A stretch of DNA of 43,138 bases from a virus. The notes under the pieces were generated by a model. That model searched no databases. It saw nothing but the letters and a program-made list of their open reading frames with translations, and was not told where the DNA came from. The position numbers were made by a program, and so were the translations under genes. This document shows positions 3,955 through 29,728 of this stretch, in pieces. The stretch is taken from UHGV virus genome UHGV-0213559; one strand, written 5' to 3'. Numbering within the stretch: the stretch's first letter is position 1; every line of letters begins with the position of its first letter.

Positions 3955-5022
3955 ATGTCACAGAACTGGATGAGACATTTCGAGCTGCAGCTTGTGGACG
4001 GGAACGGTCAGGGAATTGAGCTAAGTGATTTCAAAGTCACCTTTACGATCGACTGGTTCAACATCAGCAGCGCGTCCCGGGTAGGGACTATCAAAATTTA
4101 TAACCTCTCGGCAGATACTGTGAACCGAATTACCGGGCAGGAGTTTTCGAAAGTGCGTCTGATTGCGGGTTACGACGGTATCGCGCCGGAGGTGTCGGCA
4201 AGCGACGTCGGGACAGTGCGGGAAGTTGACGCGGCGGACGTGGGCCAGAGTGATGGTCGCAACTACGGACTGATTTTCAGCGGTGAAATTCGCTACTCGG
4301 TCACAGGAAAAGACAGTCCGGTTGATTCCTACGTCCTGATTCAGGCAGCAGATACTGATCTGGCTTTTGCCACCAGTATAACCTCACAGACGCTGGCTGC
4401 CGGTTACACGGTCGCTGATGTGAACCGTGCGCTGATGAAAGACTTCGAAGCCAAAGGTGCGACCGAAGGCCTGACGCCTGAAATGCCTGCTACTGTATTC
4501 CCCCGGGGGCGGGTGCTCTTTGGCATGACGCGGCATCTAATGGATAACGTAGCCGGGCAATGTGGCGCAACATGGCAATTCGTGGACGGTCAGCGCCAGA
4601 TGGTGGCGACTAATGAATATGTTCACGAAGCGATTGTGCTCAACAGTGCTACCGGGCTTATTGGCATGCCGCAGCAGACCATCGGCAACGGCGTAAACGT
4701 CCGCGCGCTTATTAATCCGAACATCCGGGTTAACGGGCTCATTCAGCTGGATCAGGCTTCCGTCTATCGTACCGCGTTGTCGAACAACGATATTGCGATG
4801 GCTGGTGGTCAGATCACCGACCAGAACACGGACGGAAATATCACGCTCAGCGGCACCACATCGCAGCCTGCCAGCATCGCAACGGATGGCGTTTATATTG
4901 TGCGCGGGATTATGTACACTGGTGACACAAGGGGCCAGGCGTGGTACATGGACATGATGTGCGAAGCGCGTGGCGCGGCGGATTTACTTTCGTCCTCAGC
5001 GCAGCAAAGGTTTTATTCATGA
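3955..5022 (+). CDS. baseplate hub-like tail protein (Mu gp44 / P2 gpD-like position)
   Basis: 355-aa ORF in the hub position of the tail gene order; assignment by synteny and size only. Confidence 0.45.
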   Translation: MSQNWMRHFELQLVDGNGQGIELSDFKVTFTIDWFNISSASRVGTIKIYNLSADTVNRITGQEFSKVRLIAGYDGIAPEVSASDVGTVREVDAADVGQSDGRNYGLIFSGEIRYSVTGKDSPVDSYVLIQAADTDLAFATSITSQTLAAGYTVADVNRALMKDFEAKGATEGLTPEMPATVFPRGRVLFGMTRHLMDNVAGQCGATWQFVDGQRQMVATNEYVHEAIVLNSATGLIGMPQQTIGNGVNVRALINPNIRVNGLIQLDQASVYRTALSNNDIAMAGGQITDQNTDGNITLSGTTSQPASIATDGVYIVRGIMYTGDTRGQAWYMDMMCEARGAADLLSSSAQQRFYS

Positions 5023-5366
5023 AGCGTATGAAGTTAGTTCTGACAATTTCGTTACTGTTTTCCTGCTCATCGGCTTTCGCTGATTTGCAATGCGGGGGAT
5101 ACCGACTTCATGCATCTGATAACGGGTGGACGAAAATCAACGGCGAACAGGTAACATCTCAGAAAATTAAGTTTCTTGGTCAGAAAGATGACTGGGACAA
5201 CGTTAAAACCGACATGGGCCTGATGCCTTCCCGCGATGGCAACAATTACGGCTTTGAGTTTGTGAAGCGTAACGGAAAAGCTTTTCTGAACGTCCAGCTT
5301 CTGCAGAACAGCATGGATGCGCCTAGAATCATCGGATCATTCCCTTGTAAAAAGGCGTTACGCTAA
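5019..5366 (+). CDS. secreted or lipoprotein cargo protein (signal peptide)
   Basis: in-frame ATG at 5019 overlapping the upstream stop (ATGA); N-terminus MKRMKLVLTISLLFSCSSAFA is a typical signal peptide with a possible lipobox Cys; AT-rich by eye. Confidence 0.5.
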   Translation: MKRMKLVLTISLLFSCSSAFADLQCGGYRLHASDNGWTKINGEQVTSQKIKFLGQKDDWDNVKTDMGLMPSRDGNNYGFEFVKRNGKAFLNVQLLQNSMDAPRIIGSFPCKKALR

Positions 5367-5461
5367 AGTTTGATGTCAATCTTCCGAGATGAGCGCTTTA
5401 AGGTTGACGAGATATTGTTCAAAGTTCACAATCACAATCCCTTTAGTAAGAGAAATAATCC

Positions 5462-6235
5462 ATGGCGGCAGGCATCCCACTAGAAAAAGCGCAAAAATAT
5501 GTTGAACAATTCAATGCGCTTCTATTGGATAGGGAAAGATTAGATCCCTTCACTGAAAAGAAAATTCGAGAGGAACTTTCTGTTTCTCCAACGCCTGCTA
5601 CCAACATTGCACTATCTTATCTGGATGCAATAACCGGAAAGATTGAAAGCGCGTTACGTTATCTCAGGATAAGCCTGGAAGTAAACGATGTAACGTTGGC
5701 AATGCACTATCATCACATTTTAATTAATACATTTAGCTATAATGAACTCAAGGATGTCTATGTCCCGCTGGCAAAGAAGTATCGGACAAAACTTTTTAGT
5801 CACAACGCATACAGTTGGGCGTACCGTTGCGGTGAGCGTGAACAGTTAGAATTTTATATGGAAGAGCACATTAAGCTTCTTTCTGAATCAGAAGGCAGGA
5901 GTAATGCTATGAAGCACAAAGAAGAACTCCTTGCAGAAATGGATAATTTCTATAGCGCCACACAGTGCTCGAAGGAACAGTTTCAGACCTTAGCATCCAT
6001 AATCTGGGGCTTGCTAAGTGAATACAAGGCTACGACAGGTTTCGTTCAGCTTAGTGGAAGCGGTTGCTATGTTGTTGATATTAAAAATCTTGAGCCTAAA
6101 ACTATTGCCAAAATGAATTTCGATTTGGCTGATAGAGTCTGTGCTGAATCTAAACTGGATGATTGTTCCCTGTTAGCTAGATTTACCTCTCCGCGTCAGT
6201 TGCATACGGGGGTGAGCTACCATGTCGGTAACTAG
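5462..6235 (+). CDS. hypothetical protein, cargo gene A (257 aa)
   Basis: ORF-track ORF; AT-richer than flanking tail genes by eye; 3' end overlaps the next ORF by 14 nt. Confidence 0.5.
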   Translation: MAAGIPLEKAQKYVEQFNALLLDRERLDPFTEKKIREELSVSPTPATNIALSYLDAITGKIESALRYLRISLEVNDVTLAMHYHHILINTFSYNELKDVYVPLAKKYRTKLFSHNAYSWAYRCGEREQLEFYMEEHIKLLSESEGRSNAMKHKEELLAEMDNFYSATQCSKEQFQTLASIIWGLLSEYKATTGFVQLSGSGCYVVDIKNLEPKTIAKMNFDLADRVCAESKLDDCSLLARFTSPRQLHTGVSYHVGN

Positions 6236-6617
6236 CAATCAGATTCTCGATACCGCTCGATTATGTCTGTCTGAAAATATTGAGAGTGGATTTCGAAGCG
6301 CTATCTCAAGGGCGTATTACAGTATGTTACATGAGTCTATTAGCTCACTTACTGCCATACCGCATTTTACCCATGAGCATCACAAAAATACTGTGGGTTA
6401 TATGTCAACGCCATCAGAGTGCAAATCAGAGCCATACCCGACAAATACACTGAAATCCCTGGCTTTCGTACTTCGCCAGTGGCGGGATGCTAGAAACGAA
6501 GCTGACTATGATCTGACGAATGTGACTGTTTCGAAAGAGATGGGACAGGATGCAATCGAGGCTGCTGAACTCTATTTTGAGCGCTGGGAACAGCTAAAGT
6601 CTGCTAGGGCTTCATGA
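6222..6617 (+). CDS. hypothetical protein, cargo gene B (131 aa), possible HEPN-like motifs
   Basis: overlaps gene A (coupling); contains RAYYSMLH (R-x6-H) and RNEADY stretches reminiscent of HEPN R-x4-6-H motifs; followed by a strong intrinsic terminator. Confidence 0.45.
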   Translation: MSVTSNQILDTARLCLSENIESGFRSAISRAYYSMLHESISSLTAIPHFTHEHHKNTVGYMSTPSECKSEPYPTNTLKSLAFVLRQWRDARNEADYDLTNVTVSKEMGQDAIEAAELYFERWEQLKSARAS

Positions 6618-8981: not shown

Positions 8982-9658
8982 GCAAATACACCGAACTAAT
9001 CACGAACTATCACGCCACCAAACCTAAATTTCTTGCACATGCTGATCTGATGACCAGGCCGCTTATTGATGTTGCGGCTGCCACCAGAGGGCTGATTACT
9101 GCATTTGATATTGACTCCGCGGTTGGTGTGCAACTTGACATTCTTGGATTGTGGATCGGACGTAGCCGTGTTGTCAGCCAGCCTATCTCAAGTGTCTATT
9201 TCAGCTGGGATACCGACGGGCTTGGGTATGATCAGGGTGTATGGCAGGGGCCATACGATCCTGATTCAGGATACATGTATCTCAGCGATGAAACTTATCG
9301 TGTCATTCTTAAAGCGAAGATTGCGATTAATAACTGGGACGGACGGAATGATTCGCTTCCGGCAATCCTTGACGCTGCAACAGCAGGATCCGGACTGCGA
9401 ATGCAGATTGTCGATAACCAGGACATGACGATATCGGTCTGGGTCTTTCCTGATACAGATATTTCAGATGTATCGCGTGAGTTAATTGCGGCAATTAAAC
9501 AGGGGTATCTCACAGTAAAAGCCGCCGGGGTATGGGCGGGTGGCATTGAAACACCTTCGGTTGAAACCCCATCGGAAGGTTCAAAATTTTTTGGTTTTGA
9601 TATGGATAACGAATTTATCAGTGGTTTTGATGTAGGGGCATGGGGAGTATTACTCTGA
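8978..9658 (+). CDS. tail protein I-like (baseplate)
   Basis: 226-aa ORF overlapping the J-like stop, upstream of the tail fibre. Confidence 0.45.
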
Positions 9659-10734
9659 TGACAAAAAATGACTTTAAAGCATTCGCAACGGGTAAAAATG
9701 CCAATGTTATGTCGCAGGAGGAATGGGAAGCGTTGCCTGCGCTTTTATCCGGATTTACAGCAGGGAAAGCATCCAGTGCGCAAGTCAATAAGGTTATTCG
9801 GCAGGCCAGCTTTATTGCATCTGCAATAGCACAATATACAGCAAATGAAAGTGGACTGGATGTACAGGATGATGGCGATCAGGCCGGCTTTATCGCAAAA
9901 ATGTCGTCTGCATTAGATAAGAACTATCAGAGAATTAATGCCATACTTACCGCACTTGCTAATCTTTCAGCATCCGAAAACAAATTACCGTATTTTACCA
10001 ATCAAGATACCGCTAATTTGGCTGACCTGACACAGGTTGGGCGAGATATTTTGGCAAAAAGCTCTGTTGCTGATGTCCTTAAATATCTTGGTCTGGAAGA
10101 TAATTCGACCTTTCCTGTAGGTGCCCCGATCCCGTGGCCATCAGATACAGTTCCATCTGGTTATACTCTGATGCAGGGACAGACTTTTGACAAGTCTGCA
10201 TACCCGAAACTTGCAGCCGCTTATCCGTCAGGCGTGATCCCTGATATGCGTGGCTGGACGATTAAGGGCAAGCCCGCCAGTGGTCGTACCGTATTGTCTC
10301 AGGAACAGGACGGCATTAAATCGCACACCCACAGCGCCAGCGTATCCAGTACGGATTTGGGTACGAAAACCACATCGTCGTTTGATTACGGGACGAAAAC
10401 CACCTCACTATTTGACTATGGGACCAAAACTACCAGTAACGCCGGGAGTCACACGCATTCAATACCAACATCAGATGGTGCAAACCAGGGGGGGAAAATT
10501 CCACTGACATCTGGGCGTCTGGCAACTCAATATACATCAGCAACAACAGGTTCCTCTGGCTCACATTCTCATACTGTAGGTATTGGTTCTCATCAGCACA
10601 CTGTCGGTATTGGTGCACACACGCACTCCATTGCGATTGGCTCACATGGACACACCATCACCGTTAACGCTGCTGGTAACGCGGAAAACACCGTCAAAAA
10701 CATCGCATTTAACTATATTGTGAGGCTTGCATAA
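9658..10734 (+). CDS. tail fibre protein
   Basis: ATG at 9658 overlaps the preceding TGA (ORF track starts 9640 in frame); C-terminal half has tandem GTKTTS and SH-x-H-T[VI]-[GA]-IG repeats typical of fibre tips. Confidence 0.65.
10350..10665 (+). repeat. tandem coding repeats in the tail-fibre tip (3 x DYGTKTTS-like, 4 x H-x-H units)
   Basis: near-identical nucleotide units of about 30 nt (gggacgaaaaccac...) and about 27 nt (ggtattggt..ca.ca.cac) visible directly. Confidence 0.6.
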
Positions 10735-11312
10735 TGGCATTCAGAATGAGTGAACAATCACGAACCATCAAAATTTATAATCTGCTGGCCGGAACTAATG
10801 AATTTATTGGTGACAGTGACGCATATATTCCACCTCATACAGGTCTACCTGCAAACAGTACCGATATTGCACCGCCAGATATTCCGGCTGGCTTCGTGGC
10901 TGTTTTCAACACTGATGAGGCATCGTGGCATCTCGTTGAAGACCATCGGGGTAAAACCGTCTATGATGTGGCTTCCGGCGACGCGTTATTTATTTCTGAA
11001 CTTGGCCCATTACCGGAAAATGTCACCTGGTTATCCCCGGAAGGGGAGTTTCAGAAGTGGAACGGTACATCCTGGGTGAAAGATGCAGAAGCAGAAAAAC
11101 TGTTTCGGAACCAGGAGGCGGAAGAAACAAAAAACAGCCTGATGCAGGTAGCTAGCGAGCATATTGCGCCACTTCAGGATGCTGTAGATTTGGATATTGC
11201 GACGGAAGAAGAGGCATCGTTACTGGCTGCATGGAAGACATATCGGGTATTGTTGAATCGTGTTGATACAACAGTAGCAGCGGATATTGAGTGGCCAGTC
11301 GCCCCACAATAA
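10734..11312 (+). CDS. tail fibre assembly protein (Tfa / gpG-like)
   Basis: 192-aa ORF with ATG overlapping the fibre stop (TAATG); composition typical of lambdoid/P2 Tfa chaperones. Confidence 0.65.
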
Positions 11313-11320
11313 AAAGAAAA

Positions 11321-11346
11321 AGCCATCGATAGAAATATCGATGGCT
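11321..11346. terminator. bidirectional intrinsic terminator hairpin
   Basis: perfect 10-bp stem AGCCATCGAT/ATCGATGGCT with 6-nt loop, A-run on one side and T-rich on the other; sits between convergent tfa (+) and acyltransferase (-) genes. Confidence 0.55.
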
Positions 11347-11355
11347 TTATGTGCT

Positions 11356-11961
11356 CTATTTATACAATACAACACCGCTCTTTTTAGTTATATATGTGCA
11401 GTTCGATGGTATATCTTTATTTATAAAAGACATTGCGCCTATTTTTACATTATCCCCGATTTTACGTGATAATCCAATGATGCAACAATTAGCTCCGATA
11501 TCAACGTTACTACCAATTTTTACTCTTGAACCAGGTATGTCACCATCTATCTGTCCAATCGTAGTATTCTGTCGTAACACCAGATTTTCACCAGCATCAA
11601 CAGCAAAATGAACAACAATTCCAGCGTGATGGGGAATTGTTAGCCCTTTTCCAATTTTTGCGCCCAGTCCAATCTCGCAACCAAATTTGTTAATTATTTT
11701 ATTGTTTAACTTTTTAGCAGCTTTCTTATGTAATTTATTACCATTAATATACATTTCGTTAGCCAGCCGCCACCAGAAAAGGAAATTCCTGTTACGCTGT
11801 TTTTTCTCTCTGAAAAGCCTCCAGATATTCATATGCTCCCGCCGTATTACTTCAGATTTCCAAAAGCTTTTTAAATCAGAAGAATTTCCAAGTAAAACAA
11901 AATGAATTGCTATTAAGTAAGATAACACGATAATCTCCTTAATTATTACTTTCGACCACAT
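11356..11961 (-). CDS. hexapeptide-repeat (left-handed beta-helix) acyltransferase, CysE/LacA-type
   Basis: 201 aa; C-terminal half shows repeated [LIV]-G-x-x-x-x hexads (IGLGAKIGKGLTIPHHAGIVVH..IGSNVDIGANCCIIG..IGDNVKIGAMSFI); N-terminal hydrophobic helix; strongly AT-rich. Confidence 0.55.
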   Translation of the reverse strand: MWSKVIIKEIIVLSYLIAIHFVLLGNSSDLKSFWKSEVIRREHMNIWRLFREKKQRNRNFLFWWRLANEMYINGNKLHKKAAKKLNNKIINKFGCEIGLGAKIGKGLTIPHHAGIVVHFAVDAGENLVLRQNTTIGQIDGDIPGSRVKIGSNVDIGANCCIIGLSRKIGDNVKIGAMSFINKDIPSNCTYITKKSGVVLYK

Positions 11962-12080
11962 TAGTCCTAAATTTAATGAAGTGTAAAATCTGGTTGTTTG
12001 TTATTTAAAAACTAAGTTCGTGATACTTTACGGATGCTGAGGAGAGCATTATACGATACTTTTCTGCACACTCATAGTAA

Positions 12081-12254
12081 AAAACACCAGAACAATGGGC
12101 GCAGGCTGGGCGATTAATTGCATCAGGAGTTCATCGCCAGAATGTGGCGATTATCTATGATGTTAGCGTAACGACTGTGTATAAGAAGTTTCCTGCAGGT
12201 GAAAATGAAAACATAGCACGTCGTATCCAAGTACGTGCCTCGGCTGTCTGGTAA
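12081..12254 (+). pseudogene. remnant of Hin/Gin/Pin-type serine DNA invertase (C-terminal HTH only)
   Basis: stop-bounded frame with no start codon encodes ...GVHRQNVAIIYDVSVTTVYKKFPAG..., resembling the Hin C-terminus (PRQQLAIIFGIGVSTLYRYFPAS); the catalytic N-terminal domain is absent. Confidence 0.5.
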
Positions 12255-12289
12255 GCTTGTAAAAATCTTGAACAGGGAGTGGAGCATTT

Positions 12290-12937
12290 CTATGAAGCTA
12301 ATTTGTTTAATTTTATTTGTAGTGACTTTACTTCTTGGTCGATAATGTTGAATCCCTTATTGACTGCATCTCTTAGCTCTGCATCAATATTTTTTATCCC
12401 TTGAGCATAATCTACCATTACATTTATTTTTGCATCATGTAATCTCTTATACATGGTTTTATCTTTGTTATTGTCTGCCATGCCAATAAGGATTTTTTCA
12501 TAATCCTCAATGAGTTTGTTGTTTCCTTTAAATGATTGTATTAATGAACGTGAATATGTGTATATATTAATTATTGAGTCTCTAGCAGAATCATTTAGTT
12601 TTGCAATGACATTCGCATTTTGCTCATAGAATGTGAAATTATCATCCCCTACAGGGAAAGTGAGAATCAACATTTGTCCCGGTTTGATATTATCAATGTG
12701 TGTTTTCATCCTTTTATTATATAAATTGATTAGGGTGAAAACTTCTCCCTTAACTCCTTTTAATACTGAAAGTTGTAATTCAAGGGATTCTCTTTCTGTC
12801 CCTACTTTAGACAGCTTAGCTTGTTGGGTAACTCCTTTTAGGGTAAACCATCCGCCAATAAGAGTACCAACTAGAGCTGTGAGGGAGGAGGATAACCATC
12901 CAGGAATACTATTTAAAAGATTACTAAATTCACTCAT
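12290..12937 (-). CDS. hypothetical membrane-anchored protein (215 aa)
   Basis: ORF-track ORF; one N-terminal hydrophobic helix (WLSSSLTALVGTLIGGWFTL); very AT-rich; cargo position between tail fibre genes and attP/int. Confidence 0.5.
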   Translation of the reverse strand: MSEFSNLLNSIPGWLSSSLTALVGTLIGGWFTLKGVTQQAKLSKVGTERESLELQLSVLKGVKGEVFTLINLYNKRMKTHIDNIKPGQMLILTFPVGDDNFTFYEQNANVIAKLNDSARDSIINIYTYSRSLIQSFKGNNKLIEDYEKILIGMADNNKDKTMYKRLHDAKINVMVDYAQGIKNIDAELRDAVNKGFNIIDQEVKSLQIKLNKLAS

Positions 12938-12995
12938 TATAAGTACTCGCTAATATTGAACGATATATATATCAAATTATTATAAAACTCGTCAG

Positions 12996-13274
12996 CTACT
13001 GGAGAAGGCTACCTGAACTTCGATCTATTCCTGCATCCATATAGTTGATGGTCTTCTGGAGCTCTTCGATTAGGGCAACAGCTTTTGCTCGAGAAATGCA
13101 TATTAGTTGATCCGGAAATTCTTGTAAGGGCCAGTTTGGTATACAGGCCATGTTATCAGTGAAGGATGCAGACAAGTAAACTTCATTGGTAACCAGAGAA
13201 TAGCTTACCTCAAAATTGGTGAGTTCCGGCAAACTGCTAACGTTTGACTCTTTTCTGCGCATAATATTATCCAT
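12996..13274 (-). CDS. hypothetical protein (start uncertain; ORF track extends to 13430 from a GTG)
   Basis: AT-rich ORF upstream of and co-oriented with 12290-12937; no convincing SD for any candidate start. Confidence 0.3.
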   Translation of the reverse strand: MDNIMRRKESNVSSLPELTNFEVSYSLVTNEVYLSASFTDNMACIPNWPLQEFPDQLICISRAKAVALIEELQKTINYMDAGIDRSSGSLLQ

Positions 13275-13430
13275 GACTGTGATTATGTACAGGTGATGGT
13301 CTTCAATTTCGAAGAGGGAGTCAAGGGGGAGTCTCAAATGAACCGTTATAGAAAGGGGGAGGATCTTTGTGTTGCTGAACTTATGCAAAATTTTTTTGCA
13401 CCATAAATCCAACAACACATTCAATAACAC

Positions 13431-13727
13431 ATTGCTGTATCACTATGAAAATAAGTGTGTTTTTATTTGATTTCACACATATCACAATTAATACAGCGTT
13501 TAGTAATTAGTAAAGACATTTCAATGGATTACCGTTAAATCAATTTAAAATCAGTAAGTTGTATCGAGTTTGTATGCTTTACTGTCATTAACTTACTGTA
13601 TGTTGATCCAGTGTATTTAACCTTGATAAACTCAGTCCAGCAACACAAAACCGCAACACATTGCATTTTGTCCCGTAAAAAAGACTTGTATGTGTGAGCT
13701 TGTTTTCTGCGCCTACGCAGATAAGGA
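13431..13727. other. candidate attP region upstream of int
   Basis: AT-rich non-coding stretch immediately 5' of the integrase; inverted 9-mers CAGTAAGTT (13552-13560) and AACTTACTG (13590-13598), each followed by GTAT. Confidence 0.3.
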
Positions 13728-13733
13728 TTGAGA

Positions 13734-15131
13734 ATGCCGCGCACTGTAACACATAATCCGGATAGCCCCAATAATGACGATGTTTTAGCCGCATCCGAAA
13801 AATGGGACGCCTGTAAACCCCCCTATACCAGCGCACACATGAAAATCTGTGTTGCTGCCGCCAAAATCATCCTCGCTGCTTCCGGCGTGGCTCGCCGTTC
13901 CAAATACGAAAAAGAGAACTATCTCCGTATCGATTTCAGCAAAGCCGGTAAGGTTACATTTTACGCCGAGTTTCCAAAAAAGATGGGCCTCAAAGGTAAA
14001 AAGCTCGGCGAGTGGCCGGAGCTCGCTATCCAGCTGGCGCGCGAAAAAGCGCTAGGTATGGCTGACGGTGGCCTGCGGGCAGAGTCCGTACATGCAGCGC
14101 TGGAAATGTACCGGGATGACCTCAAAGCCAAAGTCGCCCGGCAGAAGCTGAGCCCGGACAGTTTCACAACCTACGGGGTGCGTATCGACCGGATTAAAGC
14201 AACGTTCGGCGAGCGCGAGGTGTTCAGCGACGTAACATACAATCGGCTGGTGGAAGTGCTGGACGAGTGGATCGCCACTCGCTCGAACAATAACGCCCTG
14301 GAGTTGTTTGCCGAGCTCCGTCGGTTCTGGAAGTTCTGTGCACCTACTCTTTGCAACGGCCGCAATGTTGCCGCCAGTCTGCCAGATGATTATGTTTCCT
14401 CCCGCGTACAGAAACCTACCCCCACACGGCTTTTTACCGATATTGAATCAATCGCCCGACTCTGGCTCAATGTTGCTGCCTGCACCTCTGTACACCAGAA
14501 GAATGCTGTTCGCTTCATGATCATCACTGGCGTTCGTCCGATTAATGTCCATAACCTGCGCTGGGACTACGTTCACGAGGAGGCTGGTGAAATTGTTTAT
14601 CCGGAAGGGGTTATCGGCATGCGAGGGGCTATGAAAACACAAAAGGCTTTCCGCCTGCCGATAACACCTGAGATCCGGCGGATTATCGACGAGCAGAAAG
14701 CCTGGCGTGATTCAGTTCCTGAGTGCAACAGGGATTATGTATTTTTGCAGCCACGTGATCCAATGCAGCCATTTTCAAAACGATCACTGGATAAGCTGGT
14801 GAAAACATACAGCCCGGACGGGGCTGTAAAAGGAATAAAACATGATGGGACTGTTAAAGGGAAAGACGGTGCATTTAATACGATGTGCCGTAAATTCCTT
14901 AAGAGCAATGTTATTGCCTTGATGAAGGAAAGAGGCTATTCCCGATCAGACCGAAGGGAAATCAGCCTCCTTTGCCTTCACCACTCCAGCAAGTCAGATG
15001 ACCCGATGGCAGAACATTACGACTTTTCTGATGAGATTTTGCAGGAAGAGATTGCGTTAAAGCGCGAAGCTTTCGAGGCTCACGAGCGGAGCATACTTGC
15101 GCAGGTTGCATTGCTACGGCGGCGAGGTTAA
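13734..15131 (+). CDS. int: tyrosine integrase (P4-like family)
   Basis: 465 aa from ATG 13734 with AAGGA SD (ORF track starts at TTG 13728); length, composition and position next to an AlpA-like gene fit a phage integrase. Confidence 0.75.
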   Translation: MPRTVTHNPDSPNNDDVLAASEKWDACKPPYTSAHMKICVAAAKIILAASGVARRSKYEKENYLRIDFSKAGKVTFYAEFPKKMGLKGKKLGEWPELAIQLAREKALGMADGGLRAESVHAALEMYRDDLKAKVARQKLSPDSFTTYGVRIDRIKATFGEREVFSDVTYNRLVEVLDEWIATRSNNNALELFAELRRFWKFCAPTLCNGRNVAASLPDDYVSSRVQKPTPTRLFTDIESIARLWLNVAACTSVHQKNAVRFMIITGVRPINVHNLRWDYVHEEAGEIVYPEGVIGMRGAMKTQKAFRLPITPEIRRIIDEQKAWRDSVPECNRDYVFLQPRDPMQPFSKRSLDKLVKTYSPDGAVKGIKHDGTVKGKDGAFNTMCRKFLKSNVIALMKERGYSRSDRREISLLCLHHSSKSDDPMAEHYDFSDEILQEEIALKREAFEAHERSILAQVALLRRRG

Positions 15132-15328: not shown

Positions 15329-16722
15329 GCTATACCTCTCTTTTTCATGGCATCGAGCAGGATGTCCTGCACTGTTCGTTTTGAGTTGCGCCGCTCCATC
15401 ACCATTTCGTCCATAGTGTCGGCGGCAATAATGTGGTGAATGAACACCGGGCGGTTGTGTCCGGCCTGAATCTGCCGGGTTGGCCCGATGCGTTCGATAA
15501 TTTGTTGGTACTGCTCCAGATCCCACCAGTGCGAGAAAAACACCAGTATGTTTCCGCCGTCCTGCATGTTCAGGCCGTGGCCCGCGCTGGCTGGGTGTGC
15601 AAAGAGAACAGGAATCTTTCCGGAATTCCAGTCGCGCAGTGTCTGTGGATCCTGGTCGAGGTGACGACTGCGAGGGAATGCTTTAAGCAAGCGTTCAAGA
15701 TCGTGTTTCCAGTGATAAGCAACCAGCACAGGTGCGCCAGCTGCTTCGGTCAGTATGCTGTCCAGCGCCTGTAGTTTGGTGTCATGCAGTTCTGACCAAC
15801 TTCCGGTGTCGTCTGTGTATACTGCGCCACTGGCGATTTGAAGACACTTCAGTGTCTTTGCCGCGGCGTTCGGTGCTTCGATGCCTTCGCCATTCAGCTC
15901 GAGGAACATTTCCTTTTCCATTTCACGATACTGCTGACGGGCCTTCGGCGGCATATCCACGCGGATTACGTTATGGATGGGGTCTTTGATATCGAACCAG
16001 TCGGCCGCATCCAGCGAGAGGGTCACATCGGCTAACGCTCGCTGTATTTCAGCCTGTGAGTGAGCAAACGGCTCCAGTTTGGTCCAGCTCTGCCCCGGAA
16101 ACTGTATCGAGTTGAACCAGCGTGAGGTAAACGCGCCGTAAGTGCGCCCGAGACGTTGTCCCTGGTCCACAAACCACGATTGTCCCCACAAATCTACCAG
16201 GCCGTTCGGTGCTGGCGTACCGGTGAGATTTATCCAGCGCCGGACATACTTATGCGCCACTTTGCCCAGCGCCGCCGCGCGCTTACCACCACCTCGCAGC
16301 CGGAAGGATTTTAGCCGGGTGCTTTCATCCGGAATGACAGTACCGAACGGCCATCGTTCTCCCAATTCCTCAACCAGCCAGACAAGGTTATCGTAGTTGA
16401 TTGTGAACACGCTCGCGTTGCTGTTCGCCAGCGCTGTAGAGCGCGCTTTGGCGTTACCGATGATCGGCTGTACCTCAATATTACGCAGATGCCCCCATTT
16501 AACAGCTTCATCAGGCCAGGTGCTTGCTGCAACGCGTAGCGGCGCGAGGACCAGCGCGGGGCGTGTTTCTGTTCCAGCCATGAAAAGATCTTCCAGCGTG
16601 GTGAGTGTCGCTACGGTTTTACCCATTCCCATACCTGCCCAGATGTTGCAGCGCATAATGTCGACTTGATGATTGATGATGAGATCTTGGTAGGGGTGAG
16701 GTGAAAATATAGCATAGTCCAT
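15325..16722 (-). CDS. SNF2/DEAD-like superfamily 2 helicase
   Basis: Walker A GMGMGKT and motif II DEST visible in the translated ORF. Confidence 0.7.
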   Translation of the reverse strand: MDYAIFSPHPYQDLIINHQVDIMRCNIWAGMGMGKTVATLTTLEDLFMAGTETRPALVLAPLRVAASTWPDEAVKWGHLRNIEVQPIIGNAKARSTALANSNASVFTINYDNLVWLVEELGERWPFGTVIPDESTRLKSFRLRGGGKRAAALGKVAHKYVRRWINLTGTPAPNGLVDLWGQSWFVDQGQRLGRTYGAFTSRWFNSIQFPGQSWTKLEPFAHSQAEIQRALADVTLSLDAADWFDIKDPIHNVIRVDMPPKARQQYREMEKEMFLELNGEGIEAPNAAAKTLKCLQIASGAVYTDDTGSWSELHDTKLQALDSILTEAAGAPVLVAYHWKHDLERLLKAFPRSRHLDQDPQTLRDWNSGKIPVLFAHPASAGHGLNMQDGGNILVFFSHWWDLEQYQQIIERIGPTRQIQAGHNRPVFIHHIIAADTMDEMVMERRNSKRTVQDILLDAMKKRGIA

Positions 16723-16789
16723 GGTATTGTATCTCCATGAATGAACTTATGTAGTAATAGCTTAATTATTTATTTCGAAAGGAACAGTT

Positions 16790-17668
16790 ATGACCTCAGC
16801 TTATACAGATGTACAGCAAGAAGAAAATATTACTGATAAATTAGTTGTTAAATATGATGGTCCCGCACTAGCAGATCATAAAATAGATTTGGATGTTTTA
16901 ACTGAGTCATTGAATGGACTAAACAACTTGCTTAAAGAAGTTAATTTGGTTGTCAATGGCACTAGTGAGTGTATTAATGTTGAGGTTGAGCCTTTTAAGG
17001 AAGGCTCATTTGAGTATTTGATTGATGTTATTCAAAATCCACTTGACCATTTGAATATATTAAGCATTATTGGGCTTGGAGGTACAACTGCACTCGCAGC
17101 AGGAAATACTCTCATTGACTTAATTCGTCAGATCAATGGTAGGCAAATAAAACGGTTGACTTTAACAGCGGAAGGAGACTGTAAAATAGTTATGGATGAT
17201 GGTGAGGAAATTATAGCCCCGTCATATTTCCGACCTTTACTTGCCTCACCAAGCATACGCAAATCCTTATCGAAGTTAATTCATAAACCTTTGCAAAAGG
17301 AAGGATACGAATCGCTTAAAATTTCAACTCAACAGGGGGTTGAGCTGATTAAGGTGCACGAAGATAATATTGAACCGTTCAGATATAGGCGCGTTCCTGT
17401 AGTGCAGTCCTTGTCTGAAAGGGTGATTGAAGAGGCTCTAATCACATTTTTGACTATTCATAAGGATAAAAACACAGGCTGGCGAGTCAACTATGGCGAT
17501 GACACAATCAGCGTGTCTATAGAAGATACTGAGTTCTTACAACGTGTTAGTACGGGAAGAGAACCTGGTGTTTTTAGTGATGCTTACTTCGTTGATTTGC
17601 TCGTCCGTGAGAACTTGAATTCGCTGGACAAAACGTACATAGTTGTTAAAGTACACGGCATCTTATAG
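16790..17668 (+). CDS. hypothetical protein (292 aa), first gene of an AT-rich plus-strand cassette
   Basis: AAGGA SD 7 nt upstream of the ATG; no recognisable catalytic motif; opposite in orientation to the flanking replication operon. Confidence 0.5.
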   Translation: MTSAYTDVQQEENITDKLVVKYDGPALADHKIDLDVLTESLNGLNNLLKEVNLVVNGTSECINVEVEPFKEGSFEYLIDVIQNPLDHLNILSIIGLGGTTALAAGNTLIDLIRQINGRQIKRLTLTAEGDCKIVMDDGEEIIAPSYFRPLLASPSIRKSLSKLIHKPLQKEGYESLKISTQQGVELIKVHEDNIEPFRYRRVPVVQSLSERVIEEALITFLTIHKDKNTGWRVNYGDDTISVSIEDTEFLQRVSTGREPGVFSDAYFVDLLVRENLNSLDKTYIVVKVHGIL

Positions 17669-17691
17669 TAGATTCACATGGGGAGGGGGCT

Positions 17692-17940
17692 ATGATTGCT
17701 TTTGCTTTTTGGCTGGCTTTTTTTAGCCTGCTTCCCGTACTATATTGGGTTCTTAAGATGGGGTTTGACCGGTTACGCTTTGCGCTTATGCCTAAACATC
17801 ATCTTGTTCTTGAATGTGTTGACTCAGAAGGAGTTGTCCGTCGCGATGTCGTTGATGTCTCCTCTGATGATGAATTTTACAAAATTGCAATGAATGCCAT
17901 TCGTGCTGGAAGATCAGTCAAAGGAGGGACGTTTGAGTAG
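17692..17940 (+). CDS. small membrane protein (82 aa)
   Basis: N-terminal hydrophobic helix (IAFAFWLAFFSLLPVLYWVL); 23 nt downstream of the 292-aa gene. Confidence 0.4.
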   Translation: MIAFAFWLAFFSLLPVLYWVLKMGFDRLRFALMPKHHLVLECVDSEGVVRRDVVDVSSDDEFYKIAMNAIRAGRSVKGGTFE

Positions 17941-18463
17941 CGCTTCTAAACCTGATAGCTACGAAAAAGTCCCTCTGATTTCTAATGTTGCTGCTGGTGG
18001 CATCATTGGTTTTTTAACATTACTGGTGTCCTCGTGGGACGGTCGTTTTCCGTATATTGGTTCTGATTTAAATACAATAAAGCCATTTCTTTTATTAATG
18101 CTTCCCAGTTGCGCTATGTTTCTGGCGCATTGGATAAAGTCGATTGGGTTTAAATGGTCCTTAGGTAGCGTTAATCGACAGTTATTAAGCATTAATAAGA
18201 AGAAAGAAAAAGAACTTCGCCGTGATATTGAAAAGTACAAAAATGTTATTTCTAATGAAAAGATAGAGGACTTTAAAAGTCAACTTGAACAAGTATTACA
18301 AGATCGTCATGATATTATTTCTAATAATTACGCACAGAAACTAAGAGAAAGAAATTATACGCAAGAAAAATATCATGAGCATAAACAAACCGCTGCAAAT
18401 GATAATATTGAGCTGCAAAGCATACTGGAGAATCAGAAGTTCAATCAAAAAGGCATTGACTAA
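17933..18463 (+). CDS. membrane protein with charged coiled-coil-like C-terminus (about 176 aa)
   Basis: strong AAGGAGGG SD 5 nt before an in-frame TTG at 17933 (ORF track starts at ATG 17894); two hydrophobic segments then a Lys/Glu-rich tail. Confidence 0.4.
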   Translation: MSSASKPDSYEKVPLISNVAAGGIIGFLTLLVSSWDGRFPYIGSDLNTIKPFLLLMLPSCAMFLAHWIKSIGFKWSLGSVNRQLLSINKKKEKELRRDIEKYKNVISNEKIEDFKSQLEQVLQDRHDIISNNYAQKLRERNYTQEKYHEHKQTAANDNIELQSILENQKFNQKGID

Positions 18464-18467
18464 ATTT

Positions 18468-18737
18468 TTATAATATCCTCTCTAGGTTCTTGCTATCCAG
18501 CACCACTACGGTAAAGCCCAGTTTTCGCAGACGTTCATGTTCGCGCAATTGGTCAGGCCGTGGTGGCTTGCCGGGAGATTTACATTCAACGAAAACGATA
18601 CGACCACCTGGTAGCAGGACAATGCGATCCGGTACCGAGCGGTGACCGGGAGATACAAACTTAAAGGCCACTCCGCCAGCTTTTTTCACTTCAGCGACGA
18701 GATGCTTTTCGATAAGGCTTTCACGTTCATAGGCCAT
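18468..18737 (-). CDS. VRR-NUC domain nuclease
   Basis: PD-(D/E)xK-like signature ...PDRIVLL...VFVECKSPGK...; start taken at internal ATG (MAYERESL), ORF track extends to 18764. Confidence 0.55.
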   Translation of the reverse strand: MAYERESLIEKHLVAEVKKAGGVAFKFVSPGHRSVPDRIVLLPGGRIVFVECKSPGKPPRPDQLREHERLRKLGFTVVVLDSKNLERIL

Positions 18738-26929: not shown

Positions 26930-29183
26930 TAACAAACCATGGGGAGCTACGCCCGATGAGTGGTTCCACTTCGATCTGGTGTTGGGGATGACAGACAGGC
27001 TTTTACCTGTGGTGTCCAATCCCTGTGCAGAACTGTCGCCTAATAGCAAGCTGTCTCATAATTTCGGCAAAACTCCCAGTCGCTACAATGGCCAACGTAA
27101 GGTTGTTGGTATCCCCGACTGGGCTAACTATGTTGTTACGGAAAACGATTTTGCCCGGTGGTCGAACGAACCCGATTACGGTATTTGCGTTCGTACTGGC
27201 GACGGGGTGGTGGCTCTGGACTGCGATATCAATGACGCCGGGATGCAGGAGATCGTTCGCAATATTATCCTGTCATGCCTGGGGGAACTTCCGCCACGTC
27301 GCTGGCGGGCTGACAGTCATAAATGCCTGTACCTGATTGCTGTTGATGGCGACTACCGTAAACGTGGTCACCGCCTGGAAGGCGAAAACAAACAAATAGA
27401 GCTGCTCGCTAAGGGCCAGCAGTTTGTGGCTTGTGGTACCCATCCGGCAGGCGAACGTATTCAGTGGGACTGCGGTTTGCCCGGCGAACCTCTGAAAATT
27501 ACATCTGAACAGCTCGAAAGCCTGTGGCAGCGTCTGGCGGATAACTTACCCGTGAAAGACAGCTATACCGCAGGTGCGGGACGTCAGCGTGACCTTTCCT
27601 GTGTTGATCCTTCCGCGACAGATGATGTCGCCGACTGGCTTGACGCGAACGGGTGGACTCTGTCAGTCAGCTCTGATGGTTCCCGCAATCTGAAACCGTT
27701 TCGGGATGAGTCAGAATACAGCAACGGTTGCAGCGAAACATCCATTAAGTATTTCCCAAAAGGGACGGGGGGATTTGAACAGGGACATTTTAAAAGCATG
27801 CACAACACCGATGCGGGGCTTACTGATGCCGACTGGCTGGAAGGCTACGGCTATACGCAATCCCTGTTCGAAGATCTCACGGTGGCTGAAGATGGCGATA
27901 AGCCTGAATTTACCGATATTAATACAGATATGACAGCTCATTTTCTGGAACGCTTTATCTACGTCATCGAGGGTGACCAGGTATGTGATCTTAGCCGACC
28001 GCCATATCAGTGCATGATGGATATGAAGTCGTTCAAAAACCTGATGGCGCCTTACCAGTTCCCGCCAGAAGGGAAAGGGCAACCAACTCCCGCAACCAAA
28101 CGGTGGATAGAGCATCGGCATAAGAAGATTGCTGAGACGACAGGCTATAAGCCCGGTGCGGGACGTATTATCGAGCGTTTCGACGGGCGGTTTGAGATAA
28201 ACGAATTTTATATGCCTGAGCATCCACGTACAGCGGATACAAGTAAGGTGTCCACGTTCCTTAATCATATGGCGTATCTGGTACCTGATGCCTGGCAGCG
28301 CGAGTTTTTCATCGCCCGTCTGGGGTGGATGGTTCAGCGTCCGGAGCGTCGATGCCCGATTTCTATTCTGCATGTGGCTACCGCACATGGTACGGGCAGA
28401 GGATGGGTCAGCCAGTTAATGGAGCGCGTGCTTGGTCCGTGGAACTGTGCTCGTACTCGCATGAAGATCCTGTGCGATAACCAGTTCCATGACTATCTGT
28501 ACAATACGCTTCTATGCACCATTGACGAGGTGCGCGAAAACGATAAGCGGTATGAGGTGAACGATAAAATCCGCGATGTGCTGACAGAACCACGGTTTGA
28601 AGTGAACCGCAAATATGGCAGTAAAAAAACGATGGATATATACACTGGCTTTCTGTTCTACACCAATCACTTTGATGCGCTGGCGCTGCCAGAGGAAGAC
28701 CGACGTATCGCTGTGCTGGGGGGCCCTGACTTCGCCGCAACTGAAGAGCATTACGCCAGCCTGTATGGCGCGCTAAGCGACAGCGACTTTATAGCCCAGG
28801 TGTACTGGTATCTGATGGGCGTTGACCTGTCTCGCTTTAACTGGCAGCGCGCACCCGAGACGAAAGAACGTCTTCTGATGATTGAAAGCAATAAGAGCGA
28901 TGTGGAGGCTGCTCTTATTGAAATCCTGGATAATCCGCCTGTGCCAGCAATGACTTATCAACAAATTGTTAACGCAATACTGGCAGAAGCAGGAATGGAT
29001 GTAGAAATTAACCAGAAGCATATTACTCGCGTTTTGAAAGAAAGAACAAAACGTGAAGCAGTGAAACTAAAAGTGGACGGCATGACTGTTCGCATGTGGT
29101 TACTTGTAAAAAATACCGATTTCAGCAACGAAGAATTGCGTGAAATATATAAAAATTGCGAAATTTTGCAATCTGGATTGTAA
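26922..29183 (+). CDS. primase-helicase (primase-polymerase-like N-terminus, D5/P4-type NTPase C-terminus)
   Basis: 753-aa ORF directly followed by an iteron-rich origin-like region; family assignment from size, position and overall composition. Confidence 0.65.
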   Translation: MSDNKPWGATPDEWFHFDLVLGMTDRLLPVVSNPCAELSPNSKLSHNFGKTPSRYNGQRKVVGIPDWANYVVTENDFARWSNEPDYGICVRTGDGVVALDCDINDAGMQEIVRNIILSCLGELPPRRWRADSHKCLYLIAVDGDYRKRGHRLEGENKQIELLAKGQQFVACGTHPAGERIQWDCGLPGEPLKITSEQLESLWQRLADNLPVKDSYTAGAGRQRDLSCVDPSATDDVADWLDANGWTLSVSSDGSRNLKPFRDESEYSNGCSETSIKYFPKGTGGFEQGHFKSMHNTDAGLTDADWLEGYGYTQSLFEDLTVAEDGDKPEFTDINTDMTAHFLERFIYVIEGDQVCDLSRPPYQCMMDMKSFKNLMAPYQFPPEGKGQPTPATKRWIEHRHKKIAETTGYKPGAGRIIERFDGRFEINEFYMPEHPRTADTSKVSTFLNHMAYLVPDAWQREFFIARLGWMVQRPERRCPISILHVATAHGTGRGWVSQLMERVLGPWNCARTRMKILCDNQFHDYLYNTLLCTIDEVRENDKRYEVNDKIRDVLTEPRFEVNRKYGSKKTMDIYTGFLFYTNHFDALALPEEDRRIAVLGGPDFAATEEHYASLYGALSDSDFIAQVYWYLMGVDLSRFNWQRAPETKERLLMIESNKSDVEAALIEILDNPPVPAMTYQQIVNAILAEAGMDVEINQKHITRVLKERTKREAVKLKVDGMTVRMWLLVKNTDFSNEELREIYKNCEILQSGL

Positions 29184-29480
29184 AAAGGTGGCAGTAAGGT
29201 GGCAGATAAACGACTAACTGCCACTAGGTAAAGATCAATTAAATCAATTGGAAGCGGTGAAAAGGTGGCAGGTGGCAATAGAATTTAAAACTATATACGC
29301 GAGAACTTATATTTTATGTATTATGCGATCTCTTATGTATATAGAACTAAAACTATCTGCCACCCGCCACCCAAATAGCCCGACACCTTACGTGGCGTGC
29401 GTTTCAGGAGGTGGCAGATAGCTATTTAAGTGCCACTTAACTGCCACCCGGAAATTAACTTGCAAATATTTGCAAATAAC
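29184..29480. repeat. iteron cluster / candidate replication origin
   Basis: at least eight copies of GGTGGCAG or its complement CTGCCACC in both orientations (e.g. 29187-29194, 29198-29205, 29264-29271, 29357-29364, 29410-29417, 29441-29449) around an AT-rich core. Confidence 0.55.
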
Positions 29481-29497
29481 TAGCTGGAGTAAACAAC

Positions 29498-29728
29498 ATG
29501 AAAGTTTCAGGATTAAAAAATCATATCGACGGAAATAACGAAATTACCTGCCCACGCTGCGCTAGTAACAGCGTGTTTATTCGCGATGTCGCCATGCGAG
29601 CGCATAAACACGACAAAACGGTAGTTATTGACCTCGGCTGCTCTGTTTGCGACGACAATTTCCAGCTTGTGTTATCTGACGGGCCAAACGTCAGTGTTAG
29701 CGGCCACCTGACATTCAACGAGTATTGA
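29498..29728 (+). CDS. zinc-finger small protein (76 aa)
   Basis: CPRC ... CSVC cysteine pairs; lies between the origin and the Q-like gene. Confidence 0.4.
   Translation: MKVSGLKNHIDGNNEITCPRCASNSVFIRDVAMRAHKHDKTVVIDLGCSVCDDNFQLVLSDGPNVSVSGHLTFNEY

Follow-up and report, generated by a model that had tools for sequence, protein, structure and literature searches.

A prophage-borne acetyltransferase gene annotated as serine acetyltransferase travels with a tail fiber tip and may serve O-acetylation of the lipopolysaccharide core

The sequence under study is UHGV virus genome UHGV-0213559, a stretch of 43,138 nt that comprises the whole, circularly permuted ~43-kb genome of a temperate myovirus (hereafter the window), and the subject of this analysis is a minus-strand gene in it that encodes an acetyltransferase. 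The open reading frames (ORFs) of the window follow the order tail, fiber, cargo, integrase, early genes, lysis, terminase, head, and sheath. The acetyltransferase gene was described in a preliminary description of this DNA as cargo lying after the tail fiber genes, and this is where we find it. The tail fiber gene occupies 9640..10734 on the plus strand (Pfam Collar, 7.5e-12), and the distal part of its product carries repeated His-x-His motifs, which we take to resemble the metal-binding needle of T4 gp37-type fibers. It is followed on the same strand by the tail fiber assembly gene tfa at 10734..11312 (Caudo_TAP, 1.6e-41). Locally, the order is fiber, tfa, acetyltransferase, two small minus-strand ORFs, attP, and the integrase gene, the last of which lies at 13728-15131 on the plus strand (Phage_integrase, 4e-7). 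A prophage in Escherichia coli TB06051 that is 99.6% identical to the window ends next to yfhH at about position 13510, and since homology to the integrated copy stops there, we place the attP/prophage end region from ~13510. In seroconverting phages, genes for glycan or O-antigen modification likewise sit between the fiber genes and att/int.

The ORF listing gives the gene mechanically as an ORF of 201 amino acids at 11356..11961, as had been reported. Its true start, however, is very probably the GTG at 11928, giving a protein of 190 amino acids instead of 201, because the Shine-Dalgarno sequence AAGGAG (11935-11940) lies 6 nt upstream of this codon, AAGGAGATTATCGTG is unchanged across four diverged cassettes in an alignment of upstream regions, the ATG at 11959-11961 that opens the longer ORF is not conserved among related cassettes, the P1-like copies have an ATG at the codon equivalent to 11928, and the RefSeq gene models are 573 nt long. 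The coding sequence would then span 11356..11928 with its stop codon at 11356-11358, a call that draws on the ORF, profile and PDB matches, the structural model, conservation, and the ratio of nonsynonymous to synonymous substitution rates (dN/dS), and 11929..11961 would be a probable noncoding 5' leader. Compared with five relatives, the gene has a dN/dS of 0.12-0.16, and the protein is therefore under purifying selection. The DNA is AT-rich, as previously noted, with a GC content of 34.7% for the gene versus 49.0% for the window, and the block 11501-13000 has 33-37%. Between the convergent stops of tfa and the acetyltransferase gene, a 43-bp gap is filled by a hairpin with a 13-bp stem and a 4-nt loop (11319..11348). 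A terminator scan calls this hairpin on the minus strand only, that is, for the acetyltransferase gene, with the tail TTCTTTTTAT; on the plus-strand side, the sequence after it, TTTATGT, is a weak U-tract that would make a weak terminator for tfa. The bidirectional terminator proposed earlier is plausible by its position but is only half supported. No tandem repeats were found within 11200-12300, so there is no tract for phase variation there, and phase variation of the NeuO type was ruled out.

Comparison with a sister phage gives insight into how the site may have arisen. Phage vB_EcoM-611R5, which shares 96% identity with the window through the baseplate, lacks the acetyltransferase gene; at the same position it carries an invertible-type arrangement of fiber-tfa and tfa'-fiber' (S-U/U'-S') with an invertase gene, and the acetyltransferase gene occupies the place where tfa'-fiber' would be. 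In the window, the plus-strand segment 12084..12254 encodes an invertase remnant of the Pin/Gin/Cin type that retains the C-terminal helix-turn-helix only (HTH_7, 8.1e-11) and is treated by PGAP as a pseudogene in the 99.6%-identical prophage. From this comparison, the site seems to be a decayed invertible tail fiber segment that has lost its tfa'/fiber' arm. An intact invertible segment was considered and rejected, as no convincing crossover-site inverted repeat flanks the fiber-tip/tfa/acetyltransferase block and the invertase is only a remnant; the fiber segment is probably fixed. Judged from its sequence context, the gene behaves as a moron because of its low GC content, its own terminator, its orientation antisense to the late tail operon, its variable site, and its presence or absence among related phages. 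Its occurrence in P2-like, P1-like, and other prophages agrees with the cargo status originally given to it.

The protein is a left-handed beta-helix (LbH) acetyltransferase, as had been suggested from its hexapeptide pattern. The Pfam Hexapep match (E 5.7e-6) scores 26.2 bits, just below the 27-bit gathering score, and among NCBIfam models, of which 27 families matched at an E value of ≤0.1 and 25 are listed, EpsC (5.7e-21), CysE (6.3e-17), and WcaB (2e-14) are followed by many other LbH enzymes, all of them far short of their equivalog cutoffs. A phmmer search of the PDB returned 37 matches at an E value of ≤0.01, with serine acetyltransferases (SATs) down to 2.5e-13 aligned over residues ~65-191. 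Among PHROGs, the protein matches phrog_2154 (1.5e-84), a family without annotated function. An AlphaFold model built, like the residue alignment used below, on 108 relatives (pLDDT 94.2, pTM 0.89) shows five N-terminal helices (residues 2-82) followed by beta-helix coils at ~83-180 with a pLDDT of ~94. In Foldseek the model matches LbH enzymes with a probability of 1.00, and the best 50 PDB matches listed are all CysE structures, with a TMq of ~0.7 and both the helical and LbH parts covered. The predicted fold is that of a shortened SAT ("mini-SAT"), because these best-listed matches are all serine acetyltransferases over both parts; this architecture is also that of WcaB.

The active site appears to be retained. 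The predicted catalytic residue His100 (codon 11629-11631, minus strand), which corresponds to CysE H158, is a histidine in 107 of the 108 family members, and position 85, occupied here by the acidic partner Glu85 (codon 11674-11676, minus strand) and equivalent to CysE D143, is an aspartate in 60 and a glutamate in 48, hence acidic in all 108. The family also shares the motif LFWWRLANEM in its N-terminal domain. The N-terminal hydrophobic helix noted previously is present as helix 1 of the five-helix domain but is no obvious membrane anchor. In the 190-residue form, helix 1 (residues 2-13, pLDDT ~91) has only ~13 hydrophobic residues and lies inside the modeled globular N-terminal domain, and transmembrane-like Kyte-Doolittle values are reached only when the nonconserved 11-residue extension is included. 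An N-terminal anchor was rejected for this form; the protein may associate peripherally with the membrane. Taking these features together with those that separate it from CysE (see below), we are highly confident that the protein is an active acyltransferase other than CysE. One variant stands apart in the alignment: P0039, which is 51% identical and represents 341 member sequences, is the sole relative with arginine for histidine at the catalytic position and has a histidine one residue later, so that it may be inactive or register-shifted. It is found on plasmid-type contigs (L014-L017, 5001-5594) downstream of genes that seem to close a type IV pilus cluster (Peptidase_A24 and SLT matches), with IS66 and EspF/IpaB_EvcA-family fragments also in its surroundings.

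PGAP and RefSeq name the gene serine (O-)acetyltransferase, and this name, along with CysE structures as the closest solved folds and the retained catalytic His/acid pair, would fit an auxiliary metabolic gene whose product increases the supply of O-acetylserine and cysteine or turns on the CysB regulon. We give this reading only a slim chance. In published structures of E. coli CysE, serine and cysteine are bound by Asp92, Asp157, Arg192, and His193. When E. coli CysE and WcaB were aligned to the 108-member family, the equivalent positions in our protein were Asn, Pro, a gap, and Gly, and across the relatives they were variable, Pro/Ala, or gapped. The loop that contains D92 and about half of the CysE N-terminal domain are deleted, leaving ~80-82 residues ahead of the LbH domain versus ~140 in CysE, and no SAT N-terminal domain family was reported in the Pfam scan. 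At the other end, the protein stops at ...VVLYK directly after the LbH domain, whereas CysE runs ~30 residues further to ...GDGI, its CysK-binding tail. The scores against the CysE equivalogs are likewise too low (62.1 bits versus a cutoff of 210.65 for TIGR01172 and 40.1 versus 397 for NF008349), and the hosts already own cysE. Because the serine-binding residues, most of the N-terminal domain, and the CysK-binding tail are missing and the equivalog scores fall short, the database name is wrong and misleading as far as CysE-specific sequence and architecture can tell, although the chemistry looks intact. The preliminary description had placed the protein among CysE, LacA, and NeuO types. Its CysE-like fold holds, within a CysE/WcaB branch, but the LacA/NeuO branch does not: LacA scores 25.3 bits against a cutoff of 347 and Maa 19.4 against 314, and NeuO is absent both from the PDB sequence matches and from the best 50 Foldseek matches listed. 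The same description had left room for a xenobiotic acetyltransferase of the Vat/CatB type that confers antibiotic resistance. Such enzymes have the LbH fold in common with our protein and nothing further; no Vat, CatB, or XAT occurs among the 37 PDB matches or the 25 listed NCBIfam families, and the SAT-type helical N-terminal domain is foreign to them, making this the least probable of the functions considered here and a very remote one.

The gene does not travel alone. By blastn, a cassette of ~1.8-1.9 kb that consists of the fiber tip, tfa, the acetyltransferase gene, and an 84-bp upstream region (10113..12012 in the window, thus including the distal half of the fiber gene) is shared at ~87% nucleotide identity with P2-like prophages, where the match extends to 12012, and with P1-like phage-plasmids, where it extends to 11927. 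In the P2-like prophages the gene lies between tfa (G) and the sheath gene (FI), which is moron position 2. A relative is encoded at 288 viral loci in IMG/VR, and in the best 80 of these a convergent Caudo_TAP gene lies 22-99 bp past the stop in essentially every locus with room downstream. This pairing holds down to 43% identity of the acetyltransferase and 38-39% identity of the TAP protein, and the two identities are correlated (Spearman 0.67, n = 63). It is also present in Citrobacter rodentium phage phiNP, in the bee symbiont Gilliamella, and in prophage Sp13 of O157:H7 Sakai, where ECs_2638 adjoins tfaQ; in Buttiauxella, where the gene lies at a prophage end, its neighbor is a tail gene and not tfa. 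At ≥80% nucleotide identity, the gene is present in 530 of 5,426 complete E. coli genomes (~10%), with 66 copies on plasmids, and the carriers cover many serotypes, O157 and O111 strains included.

Relatives of the gene outside this cassette point to a possible substrate. In Leminorella grimontii, the chromosomal waa operon ends with the gene for a homolog of 190 amino acids (48% identity, E 1e-46), in the order GT4, RfaP, WaaB, WaaI, WaaY, WaaZ, and homolog, convergent with the gene for the O-antigen ligase WaaL; RfaP, WaaB, WaaI, WaaZ, and RfaL exceed their NCBIfam equivalog cutoffs, and WaaY exceeds that of Pfam. In Xenorhabdus prophages, the homolog lies between int and the fiber gene and precedes a gene for a GT25 "LPS biosynthesis" glycosyltransferase (1.6e-35). 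A Morganella prophage has the homolog followed by a GT9 heptosyltransferase-like gene, and in Photorhabdus a WaaZ-like gene comes after it, next to fiber genes. The informative polysaccharide-related neighbors are thus all enzymes of the type that builds the core of lipopolysaccharide (LPS), and none of the relatives examined was located in a gene cluster for O-antigen, capsule, or colanic acid. The relatives in Citrobacter, Erwinia, Pantoea, Orbus, and Obesumbacterium are uninformative lone genes.

On these comparative grounds, our best overall explanation, which we rate as slightly better than even, is that the prophage expresses an enzyme that O-acetylates the LPS core and thereby masks a phage receptor. 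That the enzyme acts in O-acetylation of some envelope glycan is probable; the LPS core specifically is a tentative choice that we place somewhat under an even chance. The comparative evidence in this way favors the role in lysogenic conversion through surface-glycan O-acetylation that had been put forward earlier, and refines it toward the LPS core over the O-antigen and capsule. The protein would work in the cytoplasm, soluble or peripheral, as an O-acetyltransferase that depends on acetyl-CoA and belongs to the SAT/WcaB branch of the LbH family; by analogy, it would form a trimer with active sites at the subunit interfaces that include His100 and Glu85. Expression would presumably come from the prophage, because the gene is antisense to the late tail operon and has its own terminator. 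LbH acetyltransferases use cytoplasmic acetyl-CoA, and it is at the cytoplasmic face of the inner membrane that lipid A-core is put together. Rather than serine, the substrate would be a sugar from an envelope glycan that is made on that face, with the core oligosaccharide on lipid A as the best candidate. Fibers of P1, P2, and Mu bind the LPS core, and export of an acetylated core would alter the receptor surface for LPS-core-binding fibers of these types, so that the lysogen would be protected from superinfection and fewer progeny would be lost on lysogens and debris. Such receptor masking would explain why the gene travels with the fiber-tip and tfa cassette. A more far-reaching proposal is that fiber tip, tfa, and acetyltransferase form a single mobile "bind-and-mask" cassette, through which any P2-, P1-, or other myovirus-type prophage that picks it up would gain both specificity for an LPS-core receptor and an enzyme that, in the lysogen, O-acetylates this very core. 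On that view there would be a widespread, hitherto unrecognized prophage family of LPS-core O-acetyltransferases, mis-annotated as CysE, and a serotype-independent variation of LPS in E. coli, but we regard the proposal as speculative and rather unlikely in its full form.

Several points weigh against masking of the LPS core. Many relatives are lone genes in unrelated neighborhoods, in chromosomal islets, or on plasmids and are silent on the substrate, and the copy in the window stands alone with no partner glycosyltransferase gene. The link to the LPS core consists of four loci at 44-49% identity, a distance over which substrate specificity can change, and exopolysaccharide repeat units, not the core, are the substrates of WcaB and EpsC, the closest named relatives. 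O-acetylation of the E. coli core is not known to have been reported. An LPS-core receptor for this particular fiber tip is presumed, and the adjacency to tfa could simply mean that the end of the tail operon tolerates insertions and that the gene hitchhikes. A sigma-70 consensus scan of the minus strand upstream of the gene also gave no convincing promoter. A hand-picked candidate, TTTACA-18-TAATGT (11987-11958), is not claimed, as related cassettes do not preserve its -10 element.

Targets other than the LPS core were also weighed. A serious rival, although one we think has a minority chance, is O-acetylation of another polysaccharide built on undecaprenyl phosphate (an O-antigen unit, colanic acid, enterobacterial common antigen [ECA], or capsule) by a WcaB-like enzyme, which would amount to serotype or lysogenic conversion of the classical kind. 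Exopolysaccharide acetyltransferases are the best named relatives (EpsC, and WcaB with 35% identity over the LbH domain), the location between fiber and att/int matches that of O-antigen genes in seroconverting phages, and the stand-alone occurrence of many relatives fits modification of a preexisting, widely conserved polymer. The absence of the examined relatives from O-antigen, capsule, and colanic-acid clusters, with glycan neighbors all of the LPS-core type, argues the other way, and the spread over many E. coli serotypes speaks against an enzyme specific for one O-unit but not against colanic acid or ECA. A target that is no glycan at all, such as the phage's own fiber or tfa, a small molecule, or a component of an incoming phage in defense or counterdefense, would agree with the convergent pairing with tfa, which persists and codiverges to ~40% identity, and P2 moron position 2 is also a site of antiphage genes such as Z/fun; no direct evidence for it was found. 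The antisense orientation and separate terminator speak against coexpression with the late genes, and homologs occur in phage-free contexts, namely, a waa operon and lone chromosomal genes. PADLOC gave no match to a defense system, its one hit (Cas6e, E 0.0076) being spurious, and membership in such a system was rejected. A nonglycan target is in our view improbable, and LPS-core O-acetylation remains our preferred reading.

Other cargo lies near the acetyltransferase gene and its relatives. The first of the two small minus-strand ORFs beyond it (12290-12937) encodes 215 amino acids, of which an N-terminal segment, GWLSSSLTALVGTLIGGWFTLKGV, is hydrophobic and the long remainder is probably helical; Pfam, PHROGs, and PADLOC gave no match. 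In many E. coli genomes without the acetyltransferase gene, a copy that is 97% identical lies beside an intact pinE, and this ORF is therefore an independent moron; it could be a candidate for exclusion or abortive infection. The second (12996-13430) lies just inside the prophage end at ~13510. The C-terminal 88 residues of its product match phrog_17793 (3.2e-44, function not annotated), PGAP leaves it out in the near-identical prophage, and it is found at 93% in vB_EcoM-606R2-type phages. Elsewhere in the window, the AT-rich blocks 5001-6500, 16501-18500, and 29001-29500 have a GC content of 0.33-0.44 versus ~0.50-0.55 around them, one breaking into the row of baseplate genes and one coming after the integrase gene, and they may hold further acquired cargo. 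Relatives in other prophages also have companions. In P2-like prophages (L008/L009/L010, 6617-7605), a class-I SAM methyltransferase gene (Methyltransf_12, 1.2e-9) lies between a tfa fragment and an intact tfa and adjoins a gene for a 69%-identical acetyltransferase, as a second cargo gene at the P2 moron site. In another type of E. coli prophage beside copA (L003-L007, 5662-5803), a hok/gef-like toxin ORF precedes a gene for a 56%-identical acetyltransferase, and hicAB precedes it in Citrobacter phiNP and Morganella, making toxin-antitoxin genes recurrent companions.

Our literature search found no functional study of this acetyltransferase family, only mentions at the level of annotation. 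The P1-like phage-plasmid JL22 carries the gene as "sacF," and the reason for its presence there was stated to be unexplained (PMC9603915), while ORF4 of C. rodentium phiNP has been listed as a "fitness" gene (PMC6456863). Prophage-borne acetyltransferases of surface glycans are well known, with NeuO (PMC3046976) and Oac, GtrC, and NeaT (PMC3573123) as examples, and the gene described here is an uncharacterized and mis-annotated member of this ordinary class that comes from the SAT/WcaB branch. What appears to be new is the failure of the CysE tests, the conserved cassette of fiber tip, tfa, and acetyltransferase, and the association with LPS-core genes. The absence of the serine-binding apparatus corrects the routine annotation as serine acetyltransferase of a gene that is common in E. 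coli, reference strains of enterohemorrhagic E. coli and P1-like phage-plasmids included. If acetylation of the core is true, it would be an LPS modification independent of serotype, with consequences for the host range of phages, therapy phages and P1 transduction included, and immune recognition might change too; it would also explain the joint exchange of receptor-binding and receptor-modifying genes. If it is false, the gene would be one more prophage moron of the acetyltransferase class.

Comparison with known systems places the protein between several better-described enzymes. CysE is the closest solved fold over the helical and LbH parts, and the equivalents of its His158 and Asp143 are kept, but the protein here is without about half of the N-terminal domain, the four serine-binding side chains, and the CysK-binding C terminus. 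WcaB (E. coli b2058, the colanic acid fucose O-acetyltransferase) and EpsC are also short mini-SATs of 160-190 amino acids with few helices and an LbH domain; WcaB in particular keeps the His-His/His-Gly motif and its acidic partner and lacks the serine-binding residues of CysE. Our protein nevertheless scores only 53 bits against WcaB cutoffs of 194.65 and 196 and 75 against 150 for EpsC, its N-terminal domain with LFWWRLANEM is longer than and unlike theirs, and its gene is carried on prophages and phage-plasmids, whereas wcaB belongs to the wca cluster. The Leminorella homolog shares length and family motifs with it but is chromosomal, sits within core biosynthesis, and is itself uncharacterized. 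Among phage-borne enzymes, NeaT, Oac, and GtrC are Acyl_transf_3 proteins of P2-like, Sf6, and P22-like prophages (PMC3573123), and neaT in strain CFT073 lies in a stretch of AT-rich DNA at P2 moron position 2, flanked by tfa (G) and FI and transcribed in the opposite orientation (PMC3573123). In P2-like prophages, a close homolog of our gene fills the same site in the same orientation. There is no homology between them, however, as those are integral membrane proteins, whereas this is predicted to be a soluble LbH enzyme that would have to act before the glycan is flipped. NeuO, the LbH enzyme of prophage CUS-3 in E. coli K1 that O-acetylates polysialic acid (PMC3046976), belongs to another LbH branch, and the gene described here is without a 5' repeat tract, but as a prophage-borne LbH acetyltransferase that acts on a surface glycan, NeuO offers the working analogy for the role we propose.

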